A DNA stretch of 64,000 nt, from NCBI GenBank assembly GCA_028279945.1, contig JANQMT010000105.1:33628-97627 (forward strand), in the 5' to 3' direction. Position 1 is the stretch's first letter. Every line of letters begins with the position of its first letter. The DNA comes from Clostridia bacterium (GTDB lineage: Bacteria > Bacillota > Clostridia > Peptostreptococcales > JAAYPU01). This document shows positions 19,469 through 39,631 of this stretch, piece by piece. Both the position numbers and the translations under genes were made by a program. Under the pieces are notes generated by a model. The model was not told where the DNA came from, searched no databases, and saw nothing but the letters and a program-made list of their open reading frames with translations.

Positions 19469-20020
19469 TCACAGTGTACCTTTTATAGAAAACCAATAAG
19501 AAACAGATGTTTCGCTGGAGGGATTGCGATACTTATGAGGGGTGTTTTTGGGAATATAAATGGTATCGCCTTGGCATAAGGTGTGAATCTCGTTATTAAT
19601 GTGAATCTCCATAGTGCCTTCGGTGATTAAGCCTACCTCATCGGTACTGTGACCCCAAGAATTTTTACTTAACTGGCTGTTGCCCTCTGTTATAATACAT
19701 ATACCATTGAGTTCCGAATAGTCAGGAACCACCAACTCGTATTTAATGGGAGATCCTTCTTCTGTCAATATATCATCTCTCTCATCACTTCGAATAACCA
19801 TAGCGGTAGGTGCTTTAGTGGATTCAAAAAATTCTACGATGTTGATATCCAATGCTTGACATATCAATTGCAGATTCGCTACAGACGGAGAGTTTTGATT
19901 TCTTTCTAAATTACTTATAAAACCAATTGATAAATCAGTCATTTCAGCCAATTCTTTTATTGTAATGTTCCGTTCTTTTCTTAATTCTTTTATTTTGTTC
20001 CCTAAATTCATAATGTTCAC
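19469..20020 (-). CDS. XRE-family HTH regulator with C-terminal cupin domain
   Basis: HTH_3 N-terminus (IKELRKERNITIKELAEMTDLSIGFISNLERN) and a cupin C-terminus. Divergent from the 20374 operon. Confidence 0.85.
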   Translation of the reverse strand: MNIMNLGNKIKELRKERNITIKELAEMTDLSIGFISNLERNQNSPSVANLQLICQALDINIVEFFESTKAPTAMVIRSDERDDILTEEGSPIKYELVVPDYSELNGICIITEGNSQLSKNSWGHSTDEVGLITEGTMEIHINNEIHTLCQGDTIYIPKNTPHKYRNPSSETSVSYWFSIKGTL

Positions 20021-20268
20021 CTATTTTTTTATTTTATTATGACATCATTATATCATTTTCAGTATTTTGAATCAAATGAATAAAATGGTGAATTTTTGAT
20101 TATGAATGAAAAACTTAAATGAAGGAAATTCTATGGATAAACGTGAGTCAATATAGGTACTATTATAGATGCTTATGACATGGAAAAAGGCAGAATCACC
20201 ATAAACCTTATTTAGAATGAAAAGGTTAAAACATTTCAATAAAATGAAATATATTTAAGATAATCATT

Positions 20269-20280
20269 AAAATAGTGAAA
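20269..20280 (+). promoter_or_regulatory. operator-like box AAAATAGTGAAA, copy 1, abutting the -35
   Basis: Exact 12-mer repeated at 20325..20336. A related AAAATGGTGAA lies at 20082..20092. Confidence 0.4.
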
Positions 20281-20286
20281 AAAATA

Positions 20287-20315
20287 TTGACAATGTTGTC
20301 TTTAAGATTTAGAAT
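20287..20315 (+). promoter_or_regulatory. candidate sigma-A promoter of the proline-racemase-family/TRAP operon
   Basis: TTGACA, 17-nt spacer, TAGAAT. Confidence 0.55.
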
Positions 20316-20324
20316 AAAGTTAAT

Positions 20325-20336
20325 AAAATAGTGAAA
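20325..20336 (+). promoter_or_regulatory. operator-like box AAAATAGTGAAA, copy 2, just downstream of the -10
   Basis: Exact repeat of 20269..20280, 56 bp away. Confidence 0.4.
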
Positions 20337-20373
20337 TAGTTTTCAAAAAAATGAAAAAAGATGGGGAGGATGT

Positions 20374-21414
20374 ATGCAGTGGTCTAAAATACTTACGCTT
20401 TATGGTGTTCATGCTGAAGGTGAAGTAGGTAGAGTTATTACGGGTGGCGTTATAGATATCCCAGGAAAAACAATGCTTGATAAAATGCGCTATATCAATG
20501 AGGAAAACGACTGGCTTAAGAGATTCACCCTTTATGAGCCAAGAGGTAGTGCACAGATGTCAGCCAATGTTCTGGTACCACCGGTCAATGAGGAAGCGGT
20601 TGCAGGTTTTATTGTTTTACAGCCGGATCAGGCACATGCATTAAGTGGATCTAATACGATGTGTGTGACAACGGTACTGTTAGAGACAGGCATGGTTCCA
20701 ATGAAAGAACCTTTTACAGAATTTAAATTAGATACTCCGGCGGGGTTGATACCGGTTAAGGCTGAGTGTAAGGGCGGCAAAGTTTTAAACGTGACCATTG
20801 ATGTCTGCCCAAGCTTTGCAGAGTGTCTGGATACGGAGATTACCGTTGAAGATATTGGTAACATAACAGTAGATATAGGCTTTGGCGGATGTTATTTTTG
20901 TATGGTAGATGTGAAACAACTGGGTTTTGAAATTTCACCCCAAAATGCAAGGAAAATGGTGGAGGTAGCAAAAAAGTTAAAGAAAGCTGCTGATGAGCAG
21001 ATAAAAGTTCAACATCCTGAAGAACCGCTTTTTAATCATATAGAGTATATGATGTATACAGATGTTAATGGTGACGAAGCGCATGTTTATAAAAATGGAA
21101 CCATTATTTATCCGGGAAGAGTTGATCGTTCCCCATGTGGAACAGGCTCGTCATCTAGGATGGCAGTGATGCATGCTAAAAAAGAATTGAAATGCGGTGA
21201 AACAGTATGGATGGAATCAACAATAGGCGGCCGATTTAAGGCAGAAATTGTTGAAGAACTTGAATTATGCGATGGCAGAAAAGCAATTATCCCAAGGCTG
21301 TCCGGAAGATGCTGGATCTATGCTATTGAGCATTTTGGAGTGGATCCTTCCGATCCGTTTCAAACAGGATATGTCATGGCAGATACTTGGGGGCCTGATG
21401 TAGAAACAATTTAA
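20374..21414 (+). CDS. proline racemase superfamily protein (Ser/Cys active-site variant)
   Basis: 346 aa. HAEGE N-terminus and DRSPCGTGSS second catalytic motif. The first catalytic motif reads LSGSNTM instead of MCGH. Confidence 0.85.
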   Translation: MQWSKILTLYGVHAEGEVGRVITGGVIDIPGKTMLDKMRYINEENDWLKRFTLYEPRGSAQMSANVLVPPVNEEAVAGFIVLQPDQAHALSGSNTMCVTTVLLETGMVPMKEPFTEFKLDTPAGLIPVKAECKGGKVLNVTIDVCPSFAECLDTEITVEDIGNITVDIGFGGCYFCMVDVKQLGFEISPQNARKMVEVAKKLKKAADEQIKVQHPEEPLFNHIEYMMYTDVNGDEAHVYKNGTIIYPGRVDRSPCGTGSSSRMAVMHAKKELKCGETVWMESTIGGRFKAEIVEELELCDGRKAIIPRLSGRCWIYAIEHFGVDPSDPFQTGYVMADTWGPDVETI

Positions 21415-21429
21415 TTTGGAGGGGAAAAA

Positions 21430-22458
21430 ATGAGAAAATTTTATAAGACGATTCTTGCAATGGTACTGGTTATATGCATGCTAAGCGTATCAGCGTGCTC
21501 TGGAGAAAAACCTGATGAAGCCGTAGAAAAAGAAGTCATTAAATTAAGGCTTGCCGGGCAGCACGCAGCTGAACATCCTGCAACAGAAGCACTTAATAGG
21601 ATTGCAGATAAAATAATGACAGATTCCAATGGAGAGATTGAAATAATGGTTTATCCATCCAACCAGCTTGGGGATTATACACTTGTATATGAGGAAGTCA
21701 TGACAGGTTCAATTGATATGGCACATATCTTTGTACCAAGTCAATATGATGAAAAACTTGAAATCAACTCTATTCCATATTTGGTTGAAAATTATGAAGC
21801 TATGGAGAAAGTATTTTCTGAAGGTTCCAATTTCTACAGAATTTATTCAGAACTTCATCAGAATCTCGGGGTGCATCTATTGGGTATATATGCAGAAGGG
21901 TTCATTGGTTATGGTATGAAAGAAATGCCGGAAAACTATTTAGATCCTACTAAGACTAAAACGAATCTAGTGAGAACGCCTGCTATGGATGTATACAAGC
22001 TGGCAACTGAAGATATGGGGTATCCATCCACGACTATTGCTTATGCCGATCTTTACACTGCTTTGCAAACAGGTGTGGCTGACGGATGGGTAGGCGGAAC
22101 GGCTCTTATGAATTATCTTTGGTTTAGGGATGTTGTTGATTATTTTATCCCATACAACATATTCGTAGAAAATACAGCTTATCTCATCAACCAAGAAACA
22201 TGGAATTCTTTATCTTCTGAACATCAGGCAATTATTGAAGAAGCATTTGAAATAGAATCTAAAAAAAGTTTTGAAATCTGTGAATCCGAAGAAATGCAAG
22301 CCAAAGAAGATTTAATTGCAGACGGCAATGAAGTGATTGAAATAAACGAAGAAGACAGAGTAGCACTAGCCGATTATATTAGAAATACAACGTGGCCTAA
22401 ATTAGAAGCAAAATTTAGTAAAGAAATCATGGATGAACTTAAAAAAGACGTAGAGTAA
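21430..22458 (+). CDS. TRAP transporter substrate-binding protein (DctP family), lipoprotein
   Basis: Lipobox SACS. DctP-like core (IKLRLAGQHAAEHPATEAL, VYPSNQLGD). Confidence 0.8.
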   Translation: MRKFYKTILAMVLVICMLSVSACSGEKPDEAVEKEVIKLRLAGQHAAEHPATEALNRIADKIMTDSNGEIEIMVYPSNQLGDYTLVYEEVMTGSIDMAHIFVPSQYDEKLEINSIPYLVENYEAMEKVFSEGSNFYRIYSELHQNLGVHLLGIYAEGFIGYGMKEMPENYLDPTKTKTNLVRTPAMDVYKLATEDMGYPSTTIAYADLYTALQTGVADGWVGGTALMNYLWFRDVVDYFIPYNIFVENTAYLINQETWNSLSSEHQAIIEEAFEIESKKSFEICESEEMQAKEDLIADGNEVIEINEEDRVALADYIRNTTWPKLEAKFSKEIMDELKKDVE

Positions 22459-22530
22459 TTGAATGAGCCTGGCATTTGCTGGGCTTATTTAAAAAGCAAT
22501 AGCGGGATTATAGACAGAGAGGAGTATCCA

Positions 22531-23058
22531 ATGGAACAATTTACTTCAAAAATAAAGCATAGTTTTCTATGGCATATTTTGAAAAAAGTACAGCAGATTA
22601 TATTGATCATTTGCAGTATTGCAGCAGTAAGTATTATAGTTCTTGCCGTAGTTATGCGTTATATCTTTGGCACAGATTTATATGGAATGGAAGAAATCAT
22701 AGTTATTGTGGCATTTTGGCTTTATTTCATTGGTGGTGCATATGGCAGCTATGAAAAAAGCCATATAAAAGCAGATATTATATCAGTATACGTTAAAAAT
22801 GAAAAAATAAAAGTCATATTGGCTGTTATAACGGGTGCAATTGAAACCATAGTATCAGCTGTACTTACACATTGGGGTTATGGATATTTCATGTGGGGAA
22901 TTGAGAAAGGCGCAAAATCACCTGGATTAAAAATTCCACTGGTTTTTTCTCAGAGCGTCATTTTTTTCGGATTATTCTTAATGACATTTTATTTCTTAAT
23001 TTACTTTATTGACGCCATTATTATTGCAAAAAATAGACTTGCCAATGGTAATGAGTGA
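22531..23058 (+). CDS. TRAP transporter small permease (DctQ family)
   Basis: About 175 aa with 4 TM helices. ATG 22531 follows GAGGAG. Lies between the DctP and DctM genes. Confidence 0.75.
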   Translation: MEQFTSKIKHSFLWHILKKVQQIILIICSIAAVSIIVLAVVMRYIFGTDLYGMEEIIVIVAFWLYFIGGAYGSYEKSHIKADIISVYVKNEKIKVILAVITGAIETIVSAVLTHWGYGYFMWGIEKGAKSPGLKIPLVFSQSVIFFGLFLMTFYFLIYFIDAIIIAKNRLANGNE

Positions 23059-23077
23059 TGATATTTAAGGAGGCACA

Positions 23078-24379
23078 ATGGAATTATTAATTAGTATTTT
23101 AATTTTAATGGTTACATTAATCATTGGTGTACCGGTTCCCTTTTGTTTCGGTGCATCGGTTATATGGTTAGTGGTTACCTTAGGATACGATCCAAGTTTT
23201 TTATTGCCGGTAGGATATAGTAAAATGTCTTCTATTGTTTTACTAGCGATTCCCTTATTTATCTTAGCAGGTGGGCTGATTGAAAAAGGGAAAATAGGTG
23301 AAGCGCTGGTTAACTTTGTTGAGCTGTTTGTAGGAAGAATAAAGGGCGGCCTTGGAGCTGTTGCCGTAATAAGCTGTGCTATTTTTGGTTCAATATCCGG
23401 AAGCGCATCGGCTACGCTTTCCTGTATAGGGTCAATTATGTTCCCAAAACTAGATGAGGCAAAGTATCCCAGAGGATTGTCTGCTGCATTGATTTCAAAT
23501 GCCGCACCATTAGGGTTATTGATACCGCCAAGTTCAATACAGATTTTATATGCTTGGATCGGTAATCAATCTGTATTAGCCTGCTTTTTAGCAACCATCG
23601 TTCCGGGACTAATTCTTACAGCCTTACTTTGCATCGTCAATTTTTATTTTGCAAGAAATAATAAGGAAATAGTTGTTCAGGAACCAGTTTCCAAACAAGC
23701 CTATAAAAAAATGTTTGTAAAACGAACTAAAAGAGTTGCACCCGCTATGTTCATGCCATTTGTTGTACTGGGAGGCATATATGGTGGTATCATGACACCA
23801 ACTGAAGCGGCTGCAGTGGCTGTTTTGTATTCTGTTCCTGTAGGGTTTTTGGTATATAGGGGCTTAAATATGAAGAATTTTAAATCGGCATTGGTAGAAA
23901 CAGCTACAACAACAGGCGTTATTATGGTCATGTTCTACGTGGTAATGATATTGAGCAGATTATTTATTATGGAGAATCTTCCCAATAAGATGATTGATAT
24001 TTTGACGGCTATTTCTCCAAATAAATATGTCATATTAGTGATGGTGAACATTTTTATGGTAATCATCGGAATGTTAATGGATGACGTAAGCGGCGTATTA
24101 TTAGCAACACCTGTGTTATTGCCTCTTGTAACAGAATTAGGAGTAAGTCCTGTGCACTTCGCAGCCATATTGGGCGTTAATTTAGGAATGGGTAACATAA
24201 CACCACCTACGGCACCACTATTATATCTTGGTGCAAGAATTGGAAAAGCGAAAATAAATGAGATGATGACACCAACTATGGCAATGATCCTATTTGCTTG
24301 GATACCAACTTTAATCATTACTACTTATTTCCCACAAGTAGCACTGTTCTTGCCAACAAAACTATTGGGTGCTTTATAA
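23078..24379 (+). CDS. TRAP transporter large permease (DctM family)
   Basis: 433 aa polytopic protein with typical DctM motifs (GSISGSASAT, MTPTEAAAVAV). Confidence 0.88.
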   Translation: MELLISILILMVTLIIGVPVPFCFGASVIWLVVTLGYDPSFLLPVGYSKMSSIVLLAIPLFILAGGLIEKGKIGEALVNFVELFVGRIKGGLGAVAVISCAIFGSISGSASATLSCIGSIMFPKLDEAKYPRGLSAALISNAAPLGLLIPPSSIQILYAWIGNQSVLACFLATIVPGLILTALLCIVNFYFARNNKEIVVQEPVSKQAYKKMFVKRTKRVAPAMFMPFVVLGGIYGGIMTPTEAAAVAVLYSVPVGFLVYRGLNMKNFKSALVETATTTGVIMVMFYVVMILSRLFIMENLPNKMIDILTAISPNKYVILVMVNIFMVIIGMLMDDVSGVLLATPVLLPLVTELGVSPVHFAAILGVNLGMGNITPPTAPLLYLGARIGKAKINEMMTPTMAMILFAWIPTLIITTYFPQVALFLPTKLLGAL

Positions 24380-24393
24380 GCAGGGAGGTATAA

Positions 24394-25962
24394 ATGCAAG
24401 ACATAAATACGGTAAGCATATTTAACGATGTAATCGGTCCGATTATGGCCGGACCTTCAAGCTCTCATACAGCAGGGCCGGCGAGAATTGGGAAGATAAT
24501 TTATAATCTTTTTAACGAAGAAATTAGTCATATAGATATATGTTTTGATATAAATGGGTCCTATCCCGCAACTTATAGAGGACAGGGAAGTGACAAAGGA
24601 TTTATTGCGGGATTAATGGGCTGGGATGCTGAAGATGAACGGTTACCATATGCATTAGAGGCAGCGGGCGAAAACAATATCAGCTATCACTTCCATTCTG
24701 CTGACCTTGGTGCAGCACATCCAAATGCATCTAAGATTACTGTCACATCAAAAAACGGCAGGACAATGGAAGTGGATTCACATTCTACAGGTGGAGGGGC
24801 ATTTGAGATTGTTGGCATTGATGGCTTTTTAGTTCAGATGTGTGGTGATTTTTATGAGTGTATTTGTATTTGCCAAAACAATGACCAACAAGTATTAGAA
24901 ATAATGCATCCATATGTTGAAAATAAAAAAAATAGTCATATCGTCGTCAGACAGCAAGGTAATAAAAAAATGATCCAGCTTTCAAGCAGCAGCCCATTTG
25001 ATGAAGACTTTATAGAAAAAGTAAAGGCATTTGAAGATACAAAAGTATTAACAACAGATTTAATAATGCCTATAGCTTCCTTCAAAAAGGTAGAAATACC
25101 CTTTAGAACAGCCCAGGAAGCTCTCAATTACAGCTGTCATAATCATATACATTCTTTAGCTGAGCTGGCATATATATATGAATGTACTCGCAGTGGATTG
25201 GAAAAATCGGTTATAAAAGAAAAGGCACGTACCATATATCAAGCCATGAAACAATCTATCAATAACGGAATAAAATCTGATTTTAAGATGAGAGGATTTT
25301 TAGAACCAAAAGCTTCAAAAATGAGGCAGAACTTACTTGAAAGAAAAACGACTGATATTGGTGTCTTAAACAGCATCATGATCTATGCAACGGCAGTGAT
25401 GGAATACAATAGTTCTATGGGAACCGTTGTAGCTGCGCCAACAGCAGGGTCGTGTGGTGTTTTGCCGGCGGTATTATGTACAATGGAGGAAAACAACTAC
25501 CCACTTGAAAAAGTAATAGATGGACTGATGGTAGCAGGTTTGATAGGTGTTTTTATCAGCCATCAGGCGACTTTTGCTGCTGAAGTTTGTGCATGCCAAG
25601 CGGAGAATGGATCAGCATCTTCTATGGCTGCTGCTGCTATGGTGTATTTATGTGATGGCACAATAGAAGAAGGATTTTCGGCTGCAGGACTGGCCCTGCA
25701 AAATATGTTAGGGCTGATTTGTGACCCTATTGGAGGGCTGGTTGATATTCCTTGTGTTAACAGAAATGCTGCGGCTGCTTCAAATGCGCTGACTTCAGCC
25801 AATATGACACTAACCGGTTTTGATTCTGTTATACCCCTTGACGAGGTAATTATTGCAATGAGAGAGACTGGAAAACTATTACCGAGTGAGTTGAAGTGTA
25901 CCGGTAAAGGCGGGTTATGTATCACACCGACTGCAATGAGAATTGCTGAAGGTATAACATAG
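24394..25962 (+). CDS. Fe-S L-serine dehydratase family protein, fused beta-alpha single chain
   Basis: N-terminal FNDVIGPIMAGPSSSHTAGP, an ACT-like middle domain, and an alpha domain with conserved Cys (GSCGVLPA, EVCACQAENGSAS). Confidence 0.85.
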   Translation: MQDINTVSIFNDVIGPIMAGPSSSHTAGPARIGKIIYNLFNEEISHIDICFDINGSYPATYRGQGSDKGFIAGLMGWDAEDERLPYALEAAGENNISYHFHSADLGAAHPNASKITVTSKNGRTMEVDSHSTGGGAFEIVGIDGFLVQMCGDFYECICICQNNDQQVLEIMHPYVENKKNSHIVVRQQGNKKMIQLSSSSPFDEDFIEKVKAFEDTKVLTTDLIMPIASFKKVEIPFRTAQEALNYSCHNHIHSLAELAYIYECTRSGLEKSVIKEKARTIYQAMKQSINNGIKSDFKMRGFLEPKASKMRQNLLERKTTDIGVLNSIMIYATAVMEYNSSMGTVVAAPTAGSCGVLPAVLCTMEENNYPLEKVIDGLMVAGLIGVFISHQATFAAEVCACQAENGSASSMAAAAMVYLCDGTIEEGFSAAGLALQNMLGLICDPIGGLVDIPCVNRNAAAASNALTSANMTLTGFDSVIPLDEVIIAMRETGKLLPSELKCTGKGGLCITPTAMRIAEGIT

Positions 25963-26002
25963 TCATATAAAAAAATCTCCTCTATACACATATAGTACTA
26001 TG

Positions 26003-26036
26003 AAAATGATGAGGCTTTTTTCACCTCATCATTTTT
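26003..26036 (+). terminator. rho-independent terminator ending the TRAP operon
   Basis: AAAATGATGAGG / CCTCATCATTTT 12-bp stem plus a T-run. Confidence 0.8.
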
Positions 26037-26101
26037 ACATTCAGATTTAAAGAAAATGAATGTAAAAAGTTAAATTGTATCAGTAATAAGAAGTACTAAG
26101 T

Positions 26102-38551: not shown

Positions 38552-39631
38552 ATGGTGGAACATCGTGTCAAAAGAGTGGTTAATAAAATGAAAGATTTGG
38601 GATTAAGCCAATTGCTTATCAGCAATCCTTTATCCATTTATTATTTAACAGGCTATCTTGAACATCCGGGTGAACGATTTTTTGCCCTTTATCTCAATAC
38701 CAAGGGTGAACATAAGATATATGCCAATCAGTTGTTTTCATTGGAAGACGATTTAGGCATAGATATAGAATGGTATAGTGATACAGATGATATCATGAAA
38801 AAAGTAGCCAAGAATATGATATCAGATGATTTTCTGGGTGTTGATAACGAGTTGCCTGCGAAGTTTCTCATTCCTCTAATCAGATTATCGGCAGCTGTTG
38901 ATTACAAGTTAGGCTCCTATTGTGTGGACTATGTTAGAGGAATAAAAGATTTAGAAGAACAAGAAAAAATGAGAATAGTTTCTCATCTAAATGATTCAGC
39001 CATGGATAAGCTGAAAGACCTTGTCCAAGAAGGTGTTACCGAAAAAGAAATGGAAGCAAAGCTTCTTGATATTTATAAAAGCTTAGGTGCTGATGGATAT
39101 TCATTTGAACCTATAATAGCTTTTGGAGGAAATGCGGCTGTGCCCCATCATTTTCCGGATGAAAGTGTTTTAAAAAAAGGACAATGCATATTATTGGATA
39201 TAGGGTGTAAAAAAGATATGTATTGTGCAGATATGACCCGAACTTTTTTTTATAAAAGTGTGTCGGAGGAACATCGTAAAATATATACCTTGGTTCAAAA
39301 GGCTAATGAAAAAGCTATTGAAGCCATAAAACCTGGAATGAAATTAAAGGATATCGATAAAATAGCCAGAGATATTATTGATGAAGGTGGTTATGGAAAA
39401 TATTTTACCCATCGCTTAGGTCATTTTATTGGTATGGATGTCCATGAATACGGGGATGTATCTTGGAAGAATGAAAATCATGTAGAAGAAGGGATGATTT
39501 TTTCCATAGAACCGGGTATTTATCTGGAGGATAATCTTGGTGTTCGTATTGAAGATTTAGTTTTGGTAACATCTAACGGATGTGAACGATTGAATCAATA
39601 TCAAAAAGATTTGCAGATTATCGGGGCATAA
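38552..39631 (+). CDS. M24-family Xaa-Pro peptidase (PepP/PepQ-like)
   Basis: Creatinase-like N-domain plus pita-bread domain with metal ligands in LLDIGCKKDMYCADMTRTF, HRLGHFIGMDVHE, FSIEPGIY and VRIEDLV. Confidence 0.85.
   Translation: MVEHRVKRVVNKMKDLGLSQLLISNPLSIYYLTGYLEHPGERFFALYLNTKGEHKIYANQLFSLEDDLGIDIEWYSDTDDIMKKVAKNMISDDFLGVDNELPAKFLIPLIRLSAAVDYKLGSYCVDYVRGIKDLEEQEKMRIVSHLNDSAMDKLKDLVQEGVTEKEMEAKLLDIYKSLGADGYSFEPIIAFGGNAAVPHHFPDESVLKKGQCILLDIGCKKDMYCADMTRTFFYKSVSEEHRKIYTLVQKANEKAIEAIKPGMKLKDIDKIARDIIDEGGYGKYFTHRLGHFIGMDVHEYGDVSWKNENHVEEGMIFSIEPGIYLEDNLGVRIEDLVLVTSNGCERLNQYQKDLQIIGA

Follow-up and report, generated by a model that had tools for sequence, protein, structure and literature searches.

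In a 64,000-nucleotide stretch of a Clostridia bacterium genome (contig JANQMT010000105.1 of assembly GCA_028279945.1; hereafter the window), an operon joins a gene for a proline-racemase-superfamily (PRS) enzyme, the three genes of a TRAP transporter and a gene for a single-chain protein related to the iron-sulfur (Fe-S) L-serine dehydratases of the SdaA family. Judged by its catalytic residues and profile scores, this fused protein is something other than a canonical serine dehydratase, and the two exchanges that set it apart, His to Gln and Glu to Cys, are specific to the clade to which it belongs. We tentatively propose that the operon imports and de-hydroxylates an isomer of 3-hydroxyproline, with the fused enzyme acting after an epimerase as an Fe-S 3-hydroxyproline dehydratase. 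Fold and cofactor are known; on the alignments and gene neighbourhoods described here, this widespread clade has a distinct catalytic signature and a distinct genomic role.

The fused gene (24394..25962, + strand) encodes 522 residues with the Pfam domains SDH_beta and SDH_alpha. An AlphaFold model (mean pLDDT 95.4) bears out the beta, ACT-like and alpha domain order that the original prediction had read from the sequence: residues 154-221 form a beta-alpha-beta-beta-alpha-beta unit between the two larger domains, and Foldseek matched the model to the L-serine dehydratase of Legionella pneumophila (type 2; 4RQO, E = 2e-21), to the ASB/ACT region of M. tuberculosis PGDH (3DC2) and to the ACT protein TM1266. 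The fold, the three cluster cysteines, the GPSSSH loop and the threonine of the APT motif are common to the fused protein, 4RQO and the SdaAA-SdaAB pair, and its beta and ACT-like domains match the beta subunit of split SdaAB. It differs from the canonical Fe-S enzymes in being one chain, in having no C-terminal inhibitory Cys tail and in two residues, Gln64 for His61 and Cys502 for Glu.

These residues were counted in 161 sampled members of the fused clade and 16 canonical enzymes. The cluster cysteines Cys401, Cys443 and Cys454, which align with Cys343, Cys385 and Cys396 of the Legionella enzyme, are invariant in both sets; throughout the fused clade, the threonine of the APT motif and the GPSSSH loop do not vary either. 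By contrast, position 64 (window numbering) is Gln in 159 of the 161 fused sequences and His in all 16 canonical ones, and position 502 is Cys in every fused sequence (161/161), where the canonical enzymes have the invariant Glu of the C-terminal K/R-E-T-x-x-GG motif (16/16). Gln64 aligns with Legionella His61, the 18-residue offset having been verified at Cys385 and Cys396; according to the passage of PMC12647591 that cites Thoden et al. 2014, His61 is the base that takes the alpha-proton and the H61A variant is inactive. The fused protein also scores below every NCBIfam equivalog cut-off for L-serine ammonia-lyase (TIGR00720, 232 against 345.1; TIGR00718, 221 against 243.2; TIGR00719, 133.8 against 161.2). 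Thus, the cluster cysteines and with them the cluster chemistry are clearly retained, while a defining catalytic feature of the L-serine dehydratases, the base His, is missing along with the K/R-E-T Glu and an equivalog score above cut-off.

In a FastTree phylogeny of 224 sequences, the fused proteins form a clade (support 99) apart from the split and the type-2 enzymes. Sub-clade A holds the window protein together with other Bacillota, Desulfovibrionales and Victivallales, and the larger sub-clade B holds Bacteroidota and several other phyla. Homologues of about 525 residues make up a large family, one query having matched more than 7,500 clusters at 90% identity; the nearest relatives of the window protein are 56-60% identical to it (P0005-P0009). 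The enzyme had been said to be usually split into sdaAB and sdaAA in Firmicutes, and this holds here: relatives from the same order carry the two genes separately (35-42% identity), and the fused gene was found in none of five same-family genomes and in 11 of 399 genomes of the same class. A metagenome scan with a single fused protein as query returned no matches, and a search seeded with a member from Haliscomenobacteraceae did not name Haliscomenobacter hydrossis among its matches.

The genes that surround the clade point toward proline and its hydroxylated derivatives. Neighbours were clustered for 172 family loci and the recurrent clusters named by Pfam and NCBIfam; these loci are in part among the matches listed of a metagenome scan with an alignment as query, mostly members of clade B at about 40% identity, and the closest relatives, P0005-P0009, lie outside the sample. 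The recurrent neighbours are DPP-IV (37 loci), aminopeptidase P of family M24 (27), a TauE-like permease (23), the DHDPS family (22), OCD/mu-crystallin (11), PRS (8), ALDH (7), DAO (5) and the S15 X-Pro peptidase (5). A flank of 8 kb or more was available for 126 of the loci; 29 of these have a gene from one of the core hydroxyproline-pathway families (PRS, OCD, DHDPS, DAO, ALDH), 45 a proline-specific peptidase (DPP-IV or aminopeptidase P) and 61 one or the other, these last being spread over six phyla (Bacteroidota, Verrucomicrobiota, Gemmatimonadota, Chloroflexota, Pseudomonadota and Bacillota). As a control, the same families were sought within the same flank in ten genomes, and found at 6 of 10 fused loci and at 0 of 16 canonical serine-dehydratase loci; a canonical enzyme is present besides the fused one in nine of the ten. 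These numbers show a trend and are no formal test, since genomes of relatives do not count as independent cases and the families sought had been chosen from the fused loci themselves.

Individual loci make the association more concrete. In two of them (L139, L141) an AraC gene diverges from a run of DHDPS, ALDH, a Cys/Cys 4-hydroxyproline epimerase, DAO and the fused gene, all in one direction; in two others (L024, L031) DAO, 4-hydroxyproline epimerase, DHDPS and AraC genes are read away from the fused gene. L066 has the order DHDPS, ABC, ALDH, fused gene, a Ser/Thr trans-3-hydroxyproline dehydratase and OCD, and in L038 a Cys/Thr trans-3-hydroxyproline dehydratase and an OCD gene are divergent from the fused gene, with a PFL-like enzyme adjoining. 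OCD and TauE genes precede the fused gene on the opposite strand in L010, L015 and L104, and in L069, L071 and L121 an OCD gene in the direction of the fused gene is followed by DHDPS and ThrC-like genes on the opposite strand. An OCD gene adjoins the fused gene without any other 3-hydroxyproline dehydratase in seven loci (L010, L015, L104, L147, L069, L071 and L121), and the OCD proteins of L066 and L069 exceed the cut-off of the Pyr2C/Pip2C reductase equivalog, Pyr2C being delta1-pyrroline-2-carboxylate. We considered and set aside the idea that the fused enzyme replaces the DAO or the DHDPS-type deaminase of the 4-hydroxyproline route; both co-occur with the fused gene in the same operons.

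Two features of these clade B neighbourhoods are worth recording in their own right. The unit of OCD (Pyr2C/Pip2C reductase), DHDPS, ThrC-like and fused genes is conserved among L069, L071 and L121, which come from Verrucomicrobiota and a metagenome contig; its ThrC-like PLP enzyme scores 615 bits on the 'threonine synthase' equivalog, yet the cluster looks catabolic. A TauE/SafE-family permease gene directly adjoins the fused gene in about 23 clade B loci (for example L010:9042-9929 and L067:9026-9880). It mostly shares an operon with OCD or DHDPS, is read away from the fused gene and may encode the substrate carrier at loci that have neither a TRAP nor an ABC system.

Within the window, the partner of the fused gene is the only PRS gene of the genome (20374..21414, + strand; Pfam Pro_racemase, 378 bits). 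The best solved relative of its product, matched over the full length at 310 bits, is 4LB0, the Agrobacterium vitis protein B9JQV3 of cluster 9, a 4-hydroxyproline 2-epimerase whose dyad is Ser/Cys in place of Cys/Cys, and this cluster also promiscuously epimerises 3-hydroxyproline (Zhao et al. 2014, PMC4113996). Enzymes of the epimerase/racemase type have Cys/Cys or Ser/Cys, the acid/base residues standing on opposite faces and the catalytic Ser held in place by an Asn three residues further on, whereas trans-3-hydroxy-L-proline dehydratases have Ser/Thr or Cys/Thr, Thr at the second site being the mark of the dehydratase (PMC4113996). Aligned with these, the window enzyme has Ser91-Gly-Ser-Asn94 and Cys255 in DRSPC255GTG, and so combines the Pro_racemase fold with two acid/base residues and is of the two-base epimerase type; we predict that it is a hydroxyproline 2-epimerase. 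The Ser-x-x-Asn motif and the opposite-face Cys are common to it and B9JQV3. Their settings differ: the Agrobacterium gene sits among the DAO, DHDPS and ALDH genes of the aerobic 4-hydroxyproline route, whereas the window gene shares its operon with genes for a TRAP system and an Fe-S dehydratase, and its genome, which has six PFL-like genes, is of the anaerobe type.

The PRS protein falls under all the NCBIfam equivalog cut-offs tested, which covered proline racemase, 4-hydroxyproline epimerase and trans-3-hydroxyproline dehydratase (NF047722, 371 against 550; PRK13969, 284 against 556; PRK13971, 230 against 376). Its best NCBIfam match would make it a trans-3-hydroxyproline dehydratase, an assignment ruled out by the Cys, not Thr, at the second catalytic site. 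A role as the proline racemase of Stickland fermentation was likewise rejected, no PrdA scoring over cut-off in the genome.

The pairing of a Ser/Cys PRS gene with the fused gene recurs in L001, from a Clostridia metagenome-assembled genome. There, a PRS gene whose product is the nearest PRS relative of the window enzyme (68% identity) and has the same dyad is followed by an Asp/Glu-type racemase, the large and small subunits of aconitase X (AcnX), a fused gene (47% identity) and an amino-acid permease. AcnX is known as the cis-3-hydroxy-L-proline dehydratase family of Watanabe et al. The two epimerase-type and two dehydratase-type genes of L001 fit the four stereoisomers of 3-hydroxyproline arranged as two C2-epimer pairs, and the window would hold one such epimerase/dehydratase pair.

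A further Clostridia locus (L187; 3549-14506) places the fused gene beside a homologue of the XRE-cupin regulator gene of the window, together with an Asp/Glu-type racemase, two BCCT carriers and two MttB-family methyltransferases, and may be an anaerobic (hydroxy)proline-betaine-like locus.

The loss of the catalytic His and the hydroxyproline and proline-peptide neighbours in six phyla together lead us to favour the removal of water from a hydroxyproline isomer, not from serine. In the following scheme the substrate, its isomer, the part played by Cys502 and the final reduction are inferred. The TRAP system would import the imino acid, and the Ser/Cys PRS enzyme would invert C2, most economically turning trans-3-hydroxy-L-proline into cis-3-hydroxy-D-proline. 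The fused enzyme would then bind the beta-hydroxyl to the free iron of its [4Fe-4S] cluster and eliminate water to give Pyr2C, with Cys502 a candidate for the base that takes the alpha-proton, since the canonical His is Gln64 here, and an unlinked ketimine reductase would convert Pyr2C to proline. We favour cis-3-hydroxy-D-proline as the isomer because the epimerase gene stands first, because PRS-type dehydratases of the trans-3-L isomer co-occur with the fused gene elsewhere and because the base is exchanged, all three points being inferences.

Extended to the clade as a whole, the proposal becomes bolder and correspondingly more doubtful: the Gln64/Cys502 proteins could be an unrecognised type of Fe-S 3-hydroxyproline dehydratase, acting in the window on cis-3-hydroxy-D-proline with a Cys base, and a third widespread solution to this step, in thousands of genomes and six phyla. 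Literature searches for an SdaA-type enzyme linked to hydroxyproline or to Pyr2C found no relevant paper, the primary papers on the enzyme types being beyond reach, and they agree with the earlier remark that no characterised pathway uses an SdaA-type enzyme in such a role. In a genome-neighbourhood study of the PRS published in 2014, serine dehydratase goes unmentioned as a neighbour (PMC4113996).

The original prediction, in which a transporter and two enzymes form a module for a hydroxylated cyclic amino acid, thus stands in part. In its favour are the epimerase-type dyad of the PRS enzyme, the distinct His-less clade and the recurrent hydroxyproline loci. Several observations weigh against it and against our reading of the pathway. 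About half of the family loci have no proline theme. No Pyr2C reductase is encoded within the operon, and the three OCD-family genes of the genome lie on other contigs and all score below the Pyr2C-reductase equivalog cut-off. L066 and L038 already have a PRS-type trans-3-hydroxyproline dehydratase, so the fused enzyme there would have to use another isomer. Two Desulfovibrio-type loci (L002 and L092) have a related TRAP system with a canonical and a fused dehydratase and no PRS gene. The fused protein otherwise keeps the features of serine dehydration, namely the GPSSSH loop, the Thr290 equivalent and the three cluster cysteines, and the 96%-complete genome has no second Fe-S SdaA-family gene, one weak 20-bit match apart. 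Finally, Xu and Grant, whose enzymes included those of Amphibacillus xylanus and Haliscomenobacter hydrossis, are said to have reported in 2013 that single-chain Fe-S enzymes of 'type 3' and 'type 4' were active on L-serine in vitro; these may belong to the clade of the fused enzyme.

The last of these points lead to the main rival, which we hold to be somewhat less likely than our own reading: that the fused enzyme is a genuine single-chain L-serine dehydratase with an alternative base, recruited to peptide and collagen loci where it funnels glycine and serine to pyruvate, and in the window merely co-expressed with a hydroxyproline PRS and TRAP system. With no other Fe-S serine dehydratase in the genome, a plain L-serine role stays in play; the L-serine ammonia-lyase models are the top family matches of the fused protein, its fold and cluster ligands agree with 4RQO, in L002 and L092 its gene follows that of a canonical dehydratase as the second of a tandem pair preceded by a TRAP system, and clade B, which is very abundant, shows about 70% conservation over Bacteroidota, as would be expected of a core enzyme. 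Yet the base whose replacement is described as abolishing activity in the cited account of the Legionella enzyme is gone from nearly the whole clade, all the equivalog cut-offs for this very activity are missed, and most of the genomes in the control have a canonical enzyme as well. Nor do the canonical loci of the control show the proline and hydroxyproline neighbourhood, and glycine-cleavage or SHMT genes are not among the recurrent neighbours of fused loci. The L-serine explanation also leaves unaccounted for the pairing of a Ser/Cys PRS gene with a fused gene in two differing operons, those of the window and of L001.

The Desulfovibrio-type loci also bear on a second alternative, in which another beta-hydroxy amino acid is dehydrated to a 2-oxo acid and ammonia: 3-hydroxyglutamate (formed from 3-hydroxyproline by an oxidation of the proline-dehydrogenase type), L-threonine or allo-threonine, D-serine or 3-hydroxyaspartate. 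In L002:1-3926 and L092:3888-11557, two tandem SdaA-family genes come after those for a sigma-54 response regulator and DctPQM; the first encodes a canonical protein of 408-411 residues that keeps both His and Glu, the second a fused protein of the Gln/Cys type. Their DctM proteins, encoded ahead of the fused genes, are 62-63% identical to that of the window, and their DctP proteins just 36%. On these sequences the tandem shows that the two paralogues are non-redundant, yet it keeps serine-like substrates in play, and it suggests that two related substrates enter through one TRAP system. The chemistry of the family would suit any alpha-amino beta-hydroxy acid, Gln64 and Cys502 are compatible with a different stereochemistry, and DHDPS-family and ThrC-like PLP enzymes recur beside clade B genes that have no PRS gene. 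Against this, the partner in the window and in L001 is a PRS enzyme, and every PRS substrate known is a proline-ring compound; genes for OCD-type Pyr2C reductases are also recurrent neighbours of the fused gene, and nothing points directly to any single one of the alternative substrates. We regard this explanation as distinctly improbable.

That the gene order is fortuitous, with the PRS, TRAP and dehydratase genes of unrelated pathways merely co-transcribed, is very improbable: the exact PRS-TRAP-fused gene order was seen in the window only, among the loci listed, and the arrangement is rare, since a search of 400 Bacillota genomes for close PRS orthologues gave best matches of at most 40% identity, but the genes are tightly spaced between a single promoter and a single terminator, and the links recur separately, PRS with the fused gene in L001, L024, L031, L038, L066, L139 and L141, TRAP with the fused gene in L002 and L092, and XRE-cupin with the fused gene in L187.

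Returning to the proposed 3-hydroxyproline dehydratase, two known systems invite comparison. The aconitase-X type of cis-3-hydroxy-L-proline dehydratase, reportedly described by Watanabe and colleagues in 2014, is also a metal-dependent dehydratase and occupies a like position inside hydroxyproline clusters, beside Pyr2C reductases; its fold is unrelated to that of the fused protein. Known 3-hydroxyproline dehydratases co-occur with the fused gene in L001 (AcnX), L038 and L066, so the fused gene is no simple replacement for them and would need another isomer. Hydroxyectoine is used through EutA, EutB and EutC and a TRAP importer, in a pathway whose steps are themselves only proposed. The proposed logic is alike, in that a racemase-type enzyme, a dehydratase and an OCD-type reductase strip the hydroxyl from a cyclic amino acid imported by a TRAP system, but the hydroxyectoine racemase (Asp/Glu type) and dehydratase (PLP type) are not homologous to the enzymes of the window.

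Large pools of carbon and nitrogen are bound up as 3- and 4-hydroxyproline in collagen, in the proteins of plant cell walls and in peptides, and the known 3-hydroxyproline dehydratases, of the PRS, aconitase-X and enolase types, leave some isomers and organisms uncovered. The very abundant fused clade is uniformly annotated as L-serine ammonia-lyase despite the loss of the reported base. If our reading is right, this step is wrongly assigned in many genome annotations and metabolic models, the Fe-S dehydratases would gain a new mechanistic variant in which Cys takes over from His as the base, and the anaerobic fate of 3-hydroxyproline could be tested directly with a compact trio of binding protein, epimerase and dehydratase.

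The remaining parts of the operon agree closely with the original prediction. All six open reading frames (ORFs) were recovered at their predicted positions in the ORF list and in Pfam and NCBIfam scans, with the XRE-cupin regulator divergent from PRS, dctP-dctQ-dctM and the 522-residue SdaA-family gene. The regulator (19469..20020, - strand) combines HTH_3 (residues 10-64) with Cupin_2 (residues 121-172), and its PuuR-like match is weak and under the NCBIfam cut-off. The 280-bp intergenic control region (20057..20336) holds two exact copies of AAAATAGTGAAA, at 20269-20280 and 20325-20336, on either side of the -35 and -10 elements of a sigma-70-type promoter (TTGACA-17-TAGAAT, 20287..20315, + strand); this promoter is the best match of the region, at 11 of 12 positions, and is a consensus match only. 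A third copy, with one mismatch and on the opposite strand, lies at 20057-20068 near the regulator's own promoter. With up to one mismatch, AAAATAGTGAAA has six matches in the whole window against 1.8 expected, three of the six in the control region, and the copies are likely operators for the XRE-cupin protein.

The TRAP system has its P, Q and M components side by side. The solute-binding lipoprotein DctP (21430..22458, + strand) scores 146 bits on Pfam DctP and 118 bits on NCBIfam TRAP_S1 (cut-off 50), and its solved relatives are distant, at 80 bits or less. The small membrane subunit DctQ (22459..23058, + strand) matches Pfam DctQ at 78 bits over residues 57-186; its ORF as called opens with TTG straight after the dctP stop, but translation more likely starts from an ATG at 22531 (Met25, ahead of the hydrophobic core), since both the hydrophobic core and the family match lie further in. 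The large membrane subunit DctM (23078..24379, + strand) scores 338 bits on TIGR00786 against a cut-off of 268. The gaps between the + strand genes are in order 15, 72, 19 and 14 nt, the second of which shrinks from 72 to 0 if dctQ starts at the TTG. The close spacing noted earlier holds.

An intrinsic-terminator-like hairpin closes the operon at 26001..26037 (+ strand), with a 14-bp stem followed by a U-rich tail; at -16.4 kcal/mol (z = -5.66) it was equalled in stability by none of 200 shuffles, and it confirms the strong terminator placed at 26003, although the consensus terminator scan listed nothing there. Upstream the operon is bordered by pcrA and ligA, and downstream by a GNAT gene, which marks it as a self-contained module.

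Elsewhere in the genome, contig C7 (14884-18823) carries a second TRAP system whose DctP, DctM and DctQ are 32-42% identical to those of the window. It is headed by an OCD-family gene, which is a candidate for the ketimine reductase or for part of a related imino-acid route. Contig C166 (L204:4709-12760) has an AcnX large and small pair with an arylmalonate-decarboxylase/Asp-Glu-racemase-like gene and an SDR gene, as well as 2-oxoacid dehydrogenase E2 and E3, another TRAP system and a PrpR-type sigma-54 activator. In the window itself, an M24 Xaa-Pro-type peptidase gene lies at about 38921-39592, some 13 kb downstream of the operon, and belongs to the peptidase family that recurs beside the fused genes in other phyla.

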